This document shows positions 17,242-31,620 of a DNA stretch of 40,340 nt, one piece after another. Location: contig JAITDL010000024.1 in assembly GCA_031282565.1 (NCBI GenBank), positions 1 to 40,340 on the forward strand. Direction: 5' to 3'. The notes below the pieces were generated by a model. The model was not told the DNA's origin. It saw only the letters and a program-made list of their open reading frames with translations, and did not search any database. The DNA comes from Puniceicoccales bacterium (GTDB lineage Bacteria; Verrucomicrobiota; Verrucomicrobiia; Opitutales; JAIRLM01). Within the stretch, counting starts at the first letter, position 1; each line of letters begins with the position of its first letter. The translations under genes and the position numbers were made by a program.

Positions 17242-17270
17242 TTGACAACGGCGGCCCATGGCGTTAGTCA
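17242..17270 (+). promoter_or_regulatory. Putative promoter of the 628-aa gene (TTGACA-N17-TAGTCA)
   Basis: TTGACA 17242-17247, TAGTCA 17265-17270, in-frame ATG 17279 8 nt downstream. If this promoter is real, the annotated ATG 17258 lies inside it. Confidence 0.4.
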
Positions 17271-19144
17271 TTCCGCAAATGACGATCCCGCCAGAAACCG
17301 TGACATTGGCGAGCGCATCACACTTCCCGCCGGAAAATGACGCTAAGGAACAGAGCCCCACAATATTGCTGTTTCTCTGCAAAACCGTTGCAATTCTCTA
17401 CATCTTGCTTTTCATTCCCATTGCGGCCCTTTCCGCGCTATTTGATGCCGTCACCATTTTCAAGTTCAGCGCCATGAGGCGCCTCCCTGGAATTTTCACA
17501 TGGCTGTGGAATGGCGGAAAAATTAAGCACGCTGCTGCGACAAGTCCTCCGGCAGACATCAAGCCAAATCATGTCGGCGATGAACAAGTTGTAGCTGTTC
17601 AAGAAAATAGCAGCACTGACCCGTCAATCGAAGCAACATCTGAAACCGATGCAGCTGCGGTTTCATTGGCTGCTTCTCCAGCGGCGCAAGCTGCTAGCCA
17701 GACTCATCCCGCGACAATTCCTCCAGCTCCCGACGATTCCGATGAGATCACCGATCCTCCTCCGGACCAACTGCCGCCAATATATGTGCCACCGATTTTT
17801 GCAAATTTGCCAGATGGGAAATGCGAATTGGTTCCCGGATCACTTACAAAATACGGCGTCTTCGAACATTGCGGCGCCGAATATGAAAGTTTCACCGTGG
17901 CAATTAGGGCAGTCGGAGCTGACGAAAGTGCCGAATCAACATCCGTTGATGTTTTCGTCAGAAGCAGCGACGGTGATGCTTTTTTCAATCTCGTTGGCGC
18001 CGAGACGCAAACGCATGGCGCAGTGGCCACTAGGCACACAGACGAAAGTAAATGCGATCCATACCTCGGCTGGTGTTTTCCCGTCGAATGTGTCGAAGGA
18101 AAAAGACCACTGGAAATATGGATGCGGCCTTCCGACGATGTTCTTGAGACGATGTACCTCCATTTCGATCACACGATACTTGCCGAACCAATATTCGAAG
18201 CTTTACCATGCGGCAGCGACACCATGGCAATCGCAGCACCATATATCTCCGGTGGTTTTTCTTCTGTACTCTTTGCTTCGCCGCAAAATCCGAACAAAAA
18301 AGACGAGCTTATGGCTATGCTGACAGAAATTGGCAACGGATCCGCCGTTGAAAGTTGCCGAAAAATAGGTGGTGATGGCCTCTACGAGCTAGTCCTGGGA
18401 GAAAAAGCAATTGTCGCACACATGTGGTTCTCAGAGGATGATTTTGTAGCTCCATCGCGGGAAAGCTTTGCAGCTTTTTTTGACCGCGGAAGCTACGCCG
18501 TGGAAAAATGTGAGGTCTGCGGTGGCAATTTATGGGCCGGCATGTGGTTGCGGGTGACATTTGCTGGCGGTATTAGCATACTTATGCAACCATGCGACGC
18601 CAAACTCATAGGCGTATTGCATGATGTTACATTGAAAAAAGAAACAGTTGCCGTAGGCAGAAATGCGGAAAGATTCCGTGGACTTTCGAGTCGTTCGTTA
18701 AAATATCGCGAAAGTGACGGCGAAGATGAGTCGGAGCCGAGCGAAATAGAGGTGTACATACTTACTAATGGTAATGATCTGCCGCCGCTTAATGACATTT
18801 TTGATGCCAGCGAGTACAAACCGAGCACCTTGTGCCCGTCGCAAAACGACTGGCGGACCGAAAATGGCACTACATATGCGCTAGCGTCTCTCAAATTTAC
18901 CAAGCTAGGCGACGATGAACTCCACATAGACGTCGACATTGTCGTCGCTACAGACGACGACAGCACAAATCAATTCGAAGCCATAGTTGATGGCGGAAAT
19001 TACACAATAGATGGGTTGGAGCTAGCTCCAGATGGCGGCGAGATTACGATAGGCGATGGCGCCTACGCTAAATACCTCATGCGGTACACTAAGGACGACC
19101 AACAGAAATCCATGGAAATATTTGTGTGGACATATCCCGTTTGA
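17258..19144 (+). CDS. Hypothetical 628-aa membrane-anchored protein (N-terminal hydrophobic segment, Pro/Ala/Ser-rich linker, novel repeated beta-like modules)
   Basis: Long ORF. Hydrophobic stretch ILLFLCKTVAILYILLFIPIAALSALFDAVTIF. Low-complexity linker ..AASPAAQAASQTHPATIPPAPDDSDEITDPPPDQLPPIYVPPIF. No recognisable catalytic motif. Probable true start ATG 17279. Confidence 0.8.
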   Translation: MALVIPQMTIPPETVTLASASHFPPENDAKEQSPTILLFLCKTVAILYILLFIPIAALSALFDAVTIFKFSAMRRLPGIFTWLWNGGKIKHAAATSPPADIKPNHVGDEQVVAVQENSSTDPSIEATSETDAAAVSLAASPAAQAASQTHPATIPPAPDDSDEITDPPPDQLPPIYVPPIFANLPDGKCELVPGSLTKYGVFEHCGAEYESFTVAIRAVGADESAESTSVDVFVRSSDGDAFFNLVGAETQTHGAVATRHTDESKCDPYLGWCFPVECVEGKRPLEIWMRPSDDVLETMYLHFDHTILAEPIFEALPCGSDTMAIAAPYISGGFSSVLFASPQNPNKKDELMAMLTEIGNGSAVESCRKIGGDGLYELVLGEKAIVAHMWFSEDDFVAPSRESFAAFFDRGSYAVEKCEVCGGNLWAGMWLRVTFAGGISILMQPCDAKLIGVLHDVTLKKETVAVGRNAERFRGLSSRSLKYRESDGEDESEPSEIEVYILTNGNDLPPLNDIFDASEYKPSTLCPSQNDWRTENGTTYALASLKFTKLGDDELHIDVDIVVATDDDSTNQFEAIVDGGNYTIDGLELAPDGGEITIGDGAYAKYLMRYTKDDQQKSMEIFVWTYPV

Positions 19145-19172
19145 CCATGGCAAAAATTCGAAGCAACTTCGG

Positions 19173-19197
19173 AACGGCTATTGTGGGGCCGTTTTTT
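19173..19197 (+). terminator. Possible weak intrinsic terminator after the 628-aa gene
   Basis: AACGGC (19173-19178), 9-nt loop, GCCGTT (19188-19193), then a T-run to 19197. The stem is short (6 bp) and the T-run is part of repeat copy B. Confidence 0.35.
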
Positions 19198-19286
19198 ATG
19201 GCGCCGCGGTGCAGCGTTTCGCCGCTTACCAAAATGTAATTTCGCGGCGCCTCGACCCTAGAAAAGCAGCTCTGCCGAATTAAAAG
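19191..19286. repeat. Copy B of the ~96-bp palindromic intergenic repeat
   Basis: Near-identical to 17096-17191 at an offset of 2095 bp. Arms GGCGCCGCG (19200-19208) and CGCGGCGCC (19243-19251). It lies between the convergent 628-aa and 370-aa genes. Confidence 0.85.
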
Positions 19287-30025: not shown

Positions 30026-30047
30026 CGGCCCACATATTCCATTCGCC

Positions 30048-30076
30048 TTGACATTTCCTGCGCAATTCCGTCTAAT
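30048..30076 (+). promoter_or_regulatory. Putative promoter of OTU-like paralogue 2 (TTGACA-N17-TCTAAT)
   Basis: TTGACA 30048-30053, TCTAAT 30071-30076, GTG start 30085 8 nt downstream. Confidence 0.45.
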
Positions 30077-30084
30077 GGCCAAGG

Positions 30085-31620
30085 GTGGATGTGGAAGCCG
30101 TCAGTCCCGGTTTATTGCCGACGTTTTTCGCTAAAACGCTCGTTCCATTGCTAATTGCCGGCGTTACTGGCACCATATTCGTAACCTGCTGCAAAACGGC
30201 GGAAGTGCAAAGGCTCTGGACAAACACTGCGCTTCTGGAGGCCATTAGCGCATGGCAAATCATCGCAGTTTCAGCTCTGACAGTTATATCAGTCGGTATT
30301 TTCTGGCTGGTGGCGCTCACATACGTCACCGTAAAAAAAGAAAATAAAGTCTCGCACATAGGCGTACTGTGGCAGTGCCTTGCGGACGCAGTAAAATGCG
30401 AAAAAAAGGATGCGAAAGGCACTGAAACGCCTCAGCCTAAACCACGTGTGAAACCAGTAAAGCCGAAGGCGATCAATGCCGCCACCGCCCAAAAAACGTT
30501 GGAGTACGAACGACTTAAAAGCAAATTGCTCACCGAGAACGATCTTGAGATTTTGGATTGCGGAGACGGCGAGGGTTCGAATTCGTGCCTCATCTCTTCC
30601 ATCATCGCGTCTGTGGAAAAAAAGCCTGGGTTCATATCCAAAAAACCGGCATGCACCGCACGGCGAAATGAAATGGCTATCAACGCTGCAGCTATTATGC
30701 TAGATGGCATCAATGCATCAGCCGCGTTGACGCCGGACCAAAAGAATGTAATGGCATGGGTCGTCGATAATATTCGCGGCGGCAACATTTCCGGCAAAAT
30801 TCCTCCAGAAATTTTGACCACACTGAGGCAGGAATGTGATAGCGCAAAAAATGAAATAGTTGCCGTCGAAGGCGAACAAATGTATGTTAGGCGAGACGAA
30901 TACGCAATCAAGCACAGAGAGCATATTGGGCGATTAGTTCGCCTTAGATTCGCGATTGGAGACTGTGACGTATTAATTCCAATTGACGCAGATGGAATTA
31001 AAGGCTACATTGATGCCGGGAAACAAATTCTTGCTGAAGGTCCAAGCCGCGAAGATCTTATTGCACTTCACAAACAAGCGCTCCGAAACGAGCAATATTA
31101 CAGCTATCTTTCGACGAGCAAAGGCGGCGACGTTGACAATGCACATAAACTGCTGACCACATCACTTGCTAGGGCTGACACCGACGGAACAGTAAACTAC
31201 GCCGACATCTTCATCGCCATGTGCGGTCTCCACGGCGAAGTCTTCCATGCGCCGGATTTAAATCCACTCCTTGAGAATCTCGGCAGGCAATGCGTACCAA
31301 GCGAACACGAGTTTGCCACCATCACCAAGCATTCGAAAATGTCTGCCAAAGCTGAAAGCATACCGCAATGCGCAAAGTGGTTCCTGTGGGTCATGTTCTA
31401 CAGCAGAATACCGGGCCATTGCTGCGACATTCCTGACGTCATACTCCAAGCTCATATGCTCAACAGAAAAATATTTGTTATTGACGATGAAGCCCGTAGC
31501 GCGTTCTCCATATCTCCCAATGGCAACAAAGAATGCATTCTCGAATCGCACATTTTCAGCGGCGACGACATAATTTTGCAACATGTGCCGGGGCATTTCC
31601 GCGGAATTTTCAAAAAATGA
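30085..31620 (+). CDS. Membrane-anchored OTU-like cysteine protease (putative deubiquitinase-type effector), paralogue 2
   Basis: 511 aa. Hydrophobic segments LLPTFFAKTLVPLLIAGVTGTIFVTCC and AWQIIAVSALTVISVGIFWLVALTYVTV. Cys box LEILDCGDGEGSNSCLISSI (Cys168, codon 30586-30588). His box ILQHVPGHFRGIF (His504, codon 31594-31596). Further blocks shared with paralogue 1: NVMAWVVDNIRGGNISGKIPPEILTTLRQECD versus KAYLWVMEQVYSGKKRGKVPADIIAALKSERD, and VNYADIFIAMCGLHGEVF versus VNYCDLLAVAFGLHEEIF. Confidence 0.6.
   Translation: MDVEAVSPGLLPTFFAKTLVPLLIAGVTGTIFVTCCKTAEVQRLWTNTALLEAISAWQIIAVSALTVISVGIFWLVALTYVTVKKENKVSHIGVLWQCLADAVKCEKKDAKGTETPQPKPRVKPVKPKAINAATAQKTLEYERLKSKLLTENDLEILDCGDGEGSNSCLISSIIASVEKKPGFISKKPACTARRNEMAINAAAIMLDGINASAALTPDQKNVMAWVVDNIRGGNISGKIPPEILTTLRQECDSAKNEIVAVEGEQMYVRRDEYAIKHREHIGRLVRLRFAIGDCDVLIPIDADGIKGYIDAGKQILAEGPSREDLIALHKQALRNEQYYSYLSTSKGGDVDNAHKLLTTSLARADTDGTVNYADIFIAMCGLHGEVFHAPDLNPLLENLGRQCVPSEHEFATITKHSKMSAKAESIPQCAKWFLWVMFYSRIPGHCCDIPDVILQAHMLNRKIFVIDDEARSAFSISPNGNKECILESHIFSGDDIILQHVPGHFRGIFKK

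Follow-up and report, generated by a model that had tools for sequence, protein, structure and literature searches.

A Puniceicoccales contig with lineage-specific, membrane-anchored orphan genes, two of which encode a putative OTU-like cysteine protease domain

The 40,340-bp contig JAITDL010000024.1 of a Puniceicoccales bacterium (hereafter the window, i.e., the whole stretch of DNA that was analysed) has a GC content of about 53%, is 91% coding, and was analysed as 32 window proteins and 320 six-frame open reading frames (ORFs). A first-pass annotation of this sequence had singled out five genes within 14 kb as an effector-like repertoire, in which an N-terminal hydrophobic anchor and a proline-rich linker precede a novel C-terminal domain. 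We refer to these genes as A (628 aa), B (370 aa), C (589 aa), F (538 or 518 aa, depending on the start) and G (511 aa), and to others discussed below as D (382 aa), E (553 aa), H (PpiD-like), I (606 aa) and K (418 aa). All five ORFs were recovered in the ORF listing where the annotation had placed them and at the lengths it gave, and the NCBI Prokaryotic Genome Annotation Pipeline (PGAP) calls each of them a hypothetical protein (A 621, B 370, C 589, F 518 and G 511 aa). On the NCBI record the window proteins read 'MAG: hypothetical protein LBB38_01125 to 01210 [Puniceicoccales bacterium]' (MDR2667631-47; MAG, metagenome-assembled genome). The orphans are interleaved with core genes, as the annotation had described, and their positions are collected in Table 1. 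The tandem genes F and G are the centre of what follows: they are paralogues, they belong to a modular family that has several copies in this genome and is restricted to close relatives, and their C-terminal domain probably has the OTU fold.

Table 1. Positions of the orphan genes and neighbouring features in the window (F and G first, then in order of position; nt, nucleotide positions; TM, transmembrane segment).
Feature	Position	Strand	Support and details
F, OTU-like cysteine protease (putative)	28469..30025	+	518 aa from Met21 of the 538-aa ORF starting at 28409; two-TM hairpin residues 17-76 (nt 28517-28696); candidate Cys162 (nt 28952-28954) and His509 (nt 29993-29995)
G, tandem paralogue of F	30085..31620	+	511 aa; two-TM hairpin residues 15-80 (nt 30127-30324); candidate Cys168 (nt 30586-30588) and His504 (nt 31594-31596)
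I, orphan without TM	10842..12662	+	606 aa; possible Cys (GASICFATAI) and His (GDGHTYTL) motifs
tRNA-Glu(CTC)	17008..17082	+	Rfam 58.8 bits and ARAGORN; directly upstream of A
99-nt direct repeat, copy 1	17093..17191	+	Repeat search, 95% identity; holds a 9-bp GC-rich hairpin
A, orphan	17258..19144	+	ORF, codon score, PGAP; 628 aa (PGAP start Met8, 621 aa); hydrophobic stretch residues 36-72 (nt 17363-17473); linker about residues 95-185 (nt 17540-17812)
99-nt direct repeat, copy 2	19188..19286	+	Repeat search; just past the A stop codon
B, orphan	19321..20433	-	370 aa; TM residues 77-98 (nt 20140-20205); GMSMG residues 255-259 (nt 19657-19671)
dUTPase_2 family (dimeric), core gene	21367..21765	+	Pfam PF08761, E 3e-21
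C, orphan	21881..23650	+	589 aa; TM residues 45-68 (nt 22013-22084) and juxtamembrane stretch; linker about residues 95-200 (nt 22163-22480)
D, orphan	23731..24879	+	382 aa; lipobox-like signal LSVFAVGC; core-like GC3
glgC, glucose-1-phosphate adenylyltransferase, core gene	24962..26242	+	Pfam NTP_transferase and LbH_GLGC
E, orphan	26765..28426	-	553 aa as maximal ORF; first ~80 codons score non-coding
H, PpiD/SurA-like chaperone with N-terminal TM, ordinary envelope gene	31700..33244	+	Pfam Rotamase_2 and SurA_N_3
K, orphan without TM	39033..40289	-	418 aa; weak likeness to the A C-terminus (E ~0.01-0.06, not significant)

The five orphans are genuine genes. With a codon log-likelihood model trained on the housekeeping genes of the window, the in-frame score of every orphan was positive and above those of all five other frames, and at about 50% GC chance cannot produce reading frames that stay open for 370-628 codons. 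A reading of the orphans, above all of A, B and C, as pseudogenes in decay or as over-called ORFs in a degenerating genome, with a 'design' that is low-complexity and hydrophobic noise, is therefore very unlikely, the more so for F, G and the N-terminal part of C, which have homologues under visible constraint. What speaks for such decay is that A, B and C had no homologue in the searches run on each, that the coding scores of these three reach about half those of core genes, that the starts of C and F differ between two gene callers, and that an apparently non-coding stretch of 933 bp lies at 20434-21366. The orphans also have a lower GC content at third codon positions (GC3), 0.45-0.51 in A, B, C, E, F, G, I and K as against 0.60-0.65 in core genes, which could reflect a foreign origin or relaxed selection with AT-biased drift; D, H and a 243-aa ORF at 4900-5631 are core-like in this respect. 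The disagreement over starts bears directly on the architecture. The Joint Genome Institute (JGI) caller shortens C to 402 aa (start at residue 188) and F to 477 aa (start at residue 62), differing from the NCBI starts by 187 and 41 codons, and thereby cuts the anchor from C and the first TM from F, so that automated comparisons made on JGI proteins would overlook the architecture altogether. We favour the long form of F because its N-terminal module is conserved with G and with external proteins, and the long form of C because of an N-terminal hidden Markov model (HMM) match, described below, together with the 187-codon open extension.

All-against-all BLASTP of the window proteins aligned F with G at 26% identity over 503 residues (E 1e-37). 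A word-indexed search of 5.8 billion proteins with F and G returned the queries only, and genome and metagenome DNA scans with the same pair gave no relatives. Exhaustive hmmsearch of 1.84 billion representative proteins yielded 12 matches, namely F, G and ten relatives (E 6e-20 to 5e-4), nine of which carry Puniceicoccales MAG locus tags (LBB14, LBB38, LBF24, LBH53, LBI39), the tenth coming from an ENA metagenome. Three of the ten (LBB38_04280, LBB38_02780 and LBB38_02045) are encoded in the same MAG as the window. The comparative check suggested with the first-pass annotation thus gave the expected answer: the family has expanded within this genome and is otherwise limited to close relatives. 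MAG Iy174_bin61 encodes a further member at a distance of about 9 kb from glgC, and orthologues in two MAGs stand downstream of dacZ, among chaperone (dnaK, groEL) and ribosomal genes. The adjoining downstream gene in those two MAGs (L019 11608-12408 and L021 3325-4257) is a conserved orphan whose product contains FLRWFVYD as a motif, a PPAPPP-type linker and, at about residues 60-120, a TM hairpin; it appears to represent another family of hairpin-anchored proteins that accompanies the OTU-like gene.

The family is modular, combining a conserved two-helix hairpin with a low-complexity linker and interchangeable C-terminal domains. Four relatives (P0006, P0007, P0009 and P0010) have the layout of F and G, i.e., TM, P/S/A-rich linker and a domain with the Cys...His motifs, and P0005, which is marked partial, shows the linker and this domain with no TM in its recorded part. 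Three others, all from LBB38 (P0008, P0012 and P0013), match F and G over the hairpin only and continue into a linker and an unrelated C-terminus, P0012 being an internally repeated protein of 1,386 aa. In P0011 (LBI39_03830, 1471 aa) the hairpin is followed by a very long P/S-rich linker and two degenerate OTU-like copies, in both of which the Cys-motif position reads KKKGSVFANVL with the Cys replaced; this protein may be a pseudo-enzyme or a ubiquitin-binding derivative. Pfam gave no match for the C-terminal domains of P0008, P0011, P0012 and P0013 or for the neighbouring orphans. We then built an HMM of the module from these same four external proteins, leaving out all window sequences. Among the 320 window ORFs it recovered G (1.6e-23), F (6.9e-16) and C (1.1e-4, bias 0.7), and it did not recover A or B. 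The consensus of the module is ...C-K/R-T...G-I-F-W/L-L...Y-V...K-x-x-N-x-x-S-x-I-G, and the TM and juxtamembrane stretch of C are homologous to the second TM of the F/G module; a weak blastp match of C to G over the TM region (E 0.012) was also seen.

A conserved N-terminal module with interchangeable C-termini in several copies per genome is the signature architecture of inter-bacterial polymorphic toxins, and F, G and their relatives could on these grounds be effectors of that type, with an N-terminal trafficking or TM module comparable to the prePAAR/TM region of type VI secretion system effectors in front of variable toxin domains. We consider this highly improbable. No PAAR, Rhs, LXG, VgrG or immunity-gene signature was found, Pfam and PADLOC giving no match; G follows directly after F and no small downstream immunity ORFs are present; and the sole cargo that can be interpreted resembles a deubiquitinase rather than a nuclease, a deaminase or a pore-former.

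That resemblance begins with the motifs of the C-terminal domain. In the family alignment an invariant Cys lies within DCGxGxG(T/S)N(S/G)C(L/F)xAS, and over the stretch G-(T/S)-(N/E/Q)-(S/G)-C-(L/F)-x-(A/S)-S it is retained in 8/8 sequences covering the region. The canonical Cys-loop motif of OTU cysteine proteases (Pfam PF02338 and PF10275; MEROPS C64, C65 and C85) is (D/N)-G-N-C-(L/F)-(F/Y)-R-(A/S), from which the family motif differs by one extra residue between Asn and Cys. The AlphaFold2 (AF2) model of F places a helix at residues 162-168, shortly after the Cys. Further along, an xPD(V/I/L)A helix with (I/L)(L/V)V(Y/I) after it is conserved, and finally there is an invariant His in (L/I)-x-H-x-x-G-x-H-(Y/F)-(Q/R)-A, which sits in a predicted strand (510-515). 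As far as the alignment goes, the order of the motifs, their spacing and the local sequence are those of OTU proteases.

Native sequences of the F/G family gave no Pfam match even at E values up to 10. When the family profile was compared with PDB sequences, the best match was the OTU domain of TRABID/ZRANB1 (3zrh, E 0.009), extending over the variable loop, helix, strands and His loop; every other match listed had an E value of at least 0.058, with Cezanne second. An insertion-deleted mini-domain alignment again matched TRABID (E 0.016) and Cezanne/OTUD7B (5lrw; E 0.55) in PDB. For TRABID, the correspondence runs over the helix, beta-strands and His loop as ...PDVAxxALxLxRDILVY...ILLHHxGxHYQA against ...THIFVLAHILRRPIIVY...IALGYTRGHFSALV, while the E values for these A20-like OTUs are only 0.009-0.55 and the Cys-loop region is unmatched; TRABID and Cezanne are, moreover, eukaryotic multidomain proteins without TM anchors, unlike F and G. 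With insertion-deleted constructs, OTU (PF02338) was the sole Pfam family matched by more than one member, the F construct aligning end to end from Cys to His (profile positions 5-128 of 128; 14.2 bits, E 0.064). The AF2 model of F, computed with the 8-sequence alignment (predicted local distance difference test score, pLDDT, 70.8; predicted TM-score, pTM, 0.67), has a strand, the Cys loop and a helix, besides a large lobe that is entirely helical and, at the C-terminus, a sheet of four or five strands. In a Foldseek search of PDB with this model, about 20 of the top 30 matches were OTU deubiquitinases (OTUB1/2, rice OTUB, OTUD1/3/5, nairovirus vOTUs, Cezanne and yeast Otu1), and in BFVD the top match was a giant-virus ubiquitinyl hydrolase (E 0.059).

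Several results weigh against this assignment, and with it against an effector reading of F and G. Every OTU match lies below formal significance: the 14.2 bits of the F construct, which is itself artificial, fall short of the Pfam OTU cut-off of 23.3 bits; the best Foldseek match in PDB had an E value of 0.053, with TM-scores of 0.10-0.35; and hhalign against two-sequence otubain and OTU profiles gave probabilities below 1% (Pfam assigned all four reference sequences to the OTU or otubain families). In addition, the position two residues after the His is Gln or Arg, and not the Asp or Asn that is common in OTUs as the third triad residue. Set against these points, the evidence is convergent and no competing family emerged. 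The OTU-like label given to these genes by the first-pass annotation is therefore the best available reading, resting as it does on the motifs, the TRABID and Cezanne matches and the Foldseek OTUs, all of them sub-threshold, and we regard it as quite probable, from alignment and model, that the F/G C-terminal domain belongs to the OTU fold.

If so, the domain would be an unusual OTU. The distance from Cys to His is 311-347 residues, and the helical lobe, counted from the Cys to the xPDVA motif, takes up 255-282 of these. The lobe of classical OTUs measures 50-60 residues, that of otubains 110-120 and that of the Legionella Lot deubiquitinases 178-210 (PMC7690952). F and G thus resemble LotA, LotB and LotC in having an extended helical lobe, which in F and G is longer still, and differ from them in their N-terminal TM hairpin and in phylum; Lot structures were absent from the top 50 Foldseek matches and from the HMMER PDB matches of F and G.

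We next consider how far the other orphans share this design. A strong N-proximal hydrophobic segment is present in all five proteins, as had been proposed, with Kyte-Doolittle 19-residue means of 2.0-2.65. Its form varies: A has a bilobed stretch of 38 residues with a central Pro, F and G each have two TMs (modelled by AF2 as a helical hairpin) separated by a loop of about 15-20 residues, and B and C have one TM each, that of B lying too far into the protein to be truly N-terminal. The bilobed hydrophobic domain typical of inclusion membrane (Inc) proteins is accordingly present in A, F and G and absent from B and C. The Pro-rich linker holds for A and C only, where it reaches 26% Pro and 70% P/S/T/A/Q over 50 residues (all other window proteins have at most 16% Pro) and leads into the C-terminal region of A and the orphan C-terminal domain of C; B has no linker, F an Ala/acid-rich spacer and G a short K/P-rich one. 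The 'same design' is homology for the F/G pair and for the N-terminal module of C, F and G, and not for A and B, which had no relatives among the window proteins in all-against-all BLASTP. The five genes are thus not one repertoire by descent: C carries the same anchor with another cargo, and A and B are unrelated orphans with analogous anchors. Furthermore, an N-terminal TM also occurs in the PpiD-like protein H and in a 220-aa ORF, so that the bare N-terminal-TM design is not diagnostic.

The claim that the large domains bear no housekeeping signature stood for A, B, C, F and G, none of which was matched in Pfam, NCBIfam, PADLOC or PHROGs; D, E, I and K were likewise unmatched there. The call of B as a lipase-like GxSxG hydrolase was not supported, as no hydrolase match was obtained in Pfam, NCBIfam or PDB even at permissive thresholds, and since 7 of the 32 window proteins (LysM, M23, GlgC and RecJ among them) carry a GxSxG pattern by chance, its occurrence in B has no evidential weight. 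Word-indexed searches of 5.8 billion proteins with B and with C returned the query only; for A there was no homologue in PDB sequences or in the genome and metagenome DNA scan, the large protein databases not having been searched with A.

The surroundings of the orphans are those of an ordinary chromosome. Core genes of the window include, for the cell wall and sugars, a GT2/GT4 glycosyltransferase, a LysM protein, a Mur ligase, an M23 peptidase, GlgC and a PfkB kinase; for translation and RNA, TrpRS, SmpB, a pseudouridine synthase and a TilS-like PP-loop ATPase; for nucleotide metabolism, cytidine deaminase, pyrimidine-nucleoside phosphorylase and dUTPase_2; and, in addition, an ABC-F ATPase, the PpiD/SurA-like chaperone, MarC and RecJ. 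No integrase or mobility genes were seen in the window, and with core genes interleaved a genomic island comprising the whole cluster was rejected. Scans of 16.6-32 kb with Rfam and for promoters and terminators returned the tRNA only and no enrichment.

The first-pass annotation had likened the proteins to those of intracellular bacteria of the Planctomycetes-Verrucomicrobia-Chlamydiae (PVC) group, and the source is indeed a PVC bacterium, a 'Puniceicoccales bacterium' MAG of the Verrucomicrobiota whose nearest relatives are termite-gut MAGs. Its GlgC is 64-92% identical to those of ten Puniceicoccales MAGs (accessions JAIRJQ-JAITXW) from the termite-gut set of PMC11257099, the closest being 83-92% identical, and sample codes in the supplement to that study include the lower termites Glyptotermes sp. 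and Cryptotermes cavifrons. In lower termites LL51 and UBA9783, which are families of the Opitutales, have genomes below 1.5 Mb and are established or putative endosymbionts of protists (flagellates); these lineages encode nucleotide transporters (NTT), and the intranuclear Ca. Nucleococcus is counted among the Opitutales that are putatively endosymbiotic (PMC11257099); the 'Nucleococcus cluster' is likewise described in PMC8204192. The glgC neighbourhoods of the ten related MAGs share none of the window orphans except E, and synteny is therefore unable to date the orphans. Gene order around glgC is not kept even among MAGs whose GlgC proteins are 83-92% identical, which implies heavy rearrangement or very different gene content among termite-gut Puniceicoccales.

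The question of which side of the membrane the F/G domain faces, and in whose service it acts, is the one on which the interpretation turns. Lys and Arg residues are clustered directly behind the last TM of F, G, C, A and the relatives. By the positive-inside rule the catalytic domain would then stay on the cytoplasmic side of the bacterium, short of a dedicated exporter, and family scans found no secretion genes in the 40-kb window. These findings count against an effector role and suit a different explanation, in which the orphans are ordinary fast-evolving inner-membrane or envelope proteins and the Cys/His domain of F and G is a papain-like peptidase with a housekeeping or regulatory role that faces the cytoplasm of the bacterium. 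The genomic setting suits it as well, given that the genes lie among core genes, beside dacZ, dnaK and groEL in relatives, with no island markers, and that the same N-terminal TM design is shown by the ordinary PpiD-like chaperone next door. However, chlamydial Inc proteins give the same topology prediction and yet are secreted. A housekeeping role would normally be kept more widely, whereas the family occurs in no other bacteria among the 1.84 billion representative proteins; within one genome the module is found joined to C-terminal domains that are unrelated and very large; and the nearest analogues in sequence and structure are eukaryotic and viral deubiquitinases, for whose substrate, ubiquitin, bacteria have no counterpart. 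On balance we hold a role in the physiology of the bacterium itself to be rather unlikely, while taking it seriously.

We therefore favour the reading that the region is part of a termite-gut Puniceicoccales/Opitutales chromosome carrying fast-evolving, lineage-specific, membrane-anchored genes among its core genes, and that F and G are OTU-like effectors, to which we give a probability of roughly 0.55. The cargo of F and G would be a divergent, putative OTU-type cysteine protease whose helical lobe, at about 280 residues, is unusually long, and its export, targeting to the host and deubiquitinase activity are putative. Two further considerations temper this reading. That the LBB38 genome belongs to the endosymbiotic Opitutales clade is something we infer from its nearest relatives being termite-gut MAGs, and an effector role for A, B and the C-terminal domain of C is backed by architecture alone, as no homologues were found in the searches run on them.

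Intracellular bacteria turn ubiquitin-cleaving proteases of this sort on their eukaryotic hosts, and close parallels to such a system are found in the Chlamydiae. Like the favoured picture of F and G, chlamydial Inc proteins have an N-proximal bilobed hydrophobic domain or two TMs followed by a soluble domain, and they are numerous in each genome, lineage-specific, dispersed among core genes and without conserved sequence outside the clade. They differ in that only A, F and G are two-lobed here, B and C having a single TM, and in that the Inc motif is one of composition only, whereas the F/G hairpin is a conserved sequence module; no homology to any Inc family in Pfam was found. ChlaDUB1/Cdu1 of C. 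trachomatis has an N-terminal TM and a Pro-rich region ahead of its catalytic domain, although it is a CE-clan enzyme and not an OTU. In Simkania negevensis, SnOTU and SnVTD are TM-bearing deubiquitinases, and SnOTU is described as otubain-like (PMC10643670); otubains are also the top Foldseek matches of the F model. Common to these proteins and to F and G is a eukaryote-associated PVC bacterium with a deubiquitinase-type cysteine protease (putative in F and G) joined to a TM anchor and a low-complexity linker. On the other hand, F and G have no detectable sequence homology to the deubiquitinases of Chlamydiae, their helical lobe is far longer, the TM of SnOTU comes after the catalytic domain whereas the two-helix hairpin of F and G comes before it, and the host of F and G is presumably a termite-gut flagellate.

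By analogy with SnOTU and SnVTD of Simkania (PMC10643670) and with ChlaDUB1, a mechanism can be proposed. The hairpin would anchor F and G in a membrane at the interface between bacterium and host, with the linker and the catalytic domain facing the host compartment. There the OTU-like domain may strip ubiquitin or a ubiquitin-like modifier from host proteins or from proteins on the symbiont surface, and the symbiont would in consequence be shielded from ubiquitin-dependent clearance, or host membranes would be remodelled. It is tempting to go further and to speculate that the hairpin is a previously undescribed targeting or export module of Opitutales ('Nucleococcus-cluster'-like) flagellate endosymbionts, delivering interchangeable cargo to the host membrane, and that the F/G domain represents a new subclass of OTU deubiquitinases with the longest helical lobe known; this extension is tentative and, in our view, on the doubtful side. 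Were it true, an Inc-like strategy would have arisen in a second PVC phylum independently of Chlamydiae.

The remaining features of the window concern A and the minor orphans. Two copies of a 99-nt repeat, the only ones in the window, bracket A exactly (2095 nt from start to start), and the first begins 11 nt downstream of tRNA-Glu. The flanking repeats together with the tRNA suggest that A was inserted or duplicated as a cassette, and for A alone a genomic island is possible; the 99-nt element, with no integrase nearby, could be an att-like remnant or a duplicated intergenic or terminator element. Beyond B, the 933-bp gap before the dUTPase gene holds only overlapping ORFs of 218 and 234 aa, with coding scores near zero or negative and no Pfam or Rfam match, and may be a decayed gene or a non-coding region. 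D is probably a lipoprotein, judging by its lipobox-like signal. A homologue of E, about 31% identical, stands directly beside glgC in MAG Ct408_bin89 (L010 775-2784) and has an N-terminal TM, …GLFIFICCFTFFVIPLVYYLVLRNRFSRK…; since the first ~80 codons of E in the window score as non-coding whereas the Ct408_bin89 copy has this TM, the window copy seems to have lost it. PDB sequence searches with A, B, C, E and I returned noise only. Internal repeats and a similarity between A and K were considered and dropped, the matches being weak and non-collinear (E at least 0.01). At the far end of the window, the maximal MarC ORF (35961-36926, minus strand) overlaps the RecJ ORF (36673-38472, plus strand) by about 250 bp; because its first ~120 codons score as non-coding, the true start of the MarC ORF probably lies further downstream.

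To our knowledge, hardly any molecular work exists on the Verrucomicrobia that live as endosymbionts in termite-gut protists, the intranuclear Ca. Nucleococcus among them, and we know of no effector or mechanism of host manipulation described for them. Even if F and G serve the bacterium itself, the family would still be an uncharacterised, clade-specific membrane protease. If the favoured reading holds, a membrane-anchored OTU-like family with a reusable anchor would contribute a highly divergent branch to the OTU enzymes of bacteria and would carry the pairing of membrane anchor and deubiquitinase from Chlamydiae to a second PVC phylum. The HMM of the anchor module offers a cheap route to candidate effectors in related MAGs, and the family would supply the first candidate host-interaction proteins for this lineage.

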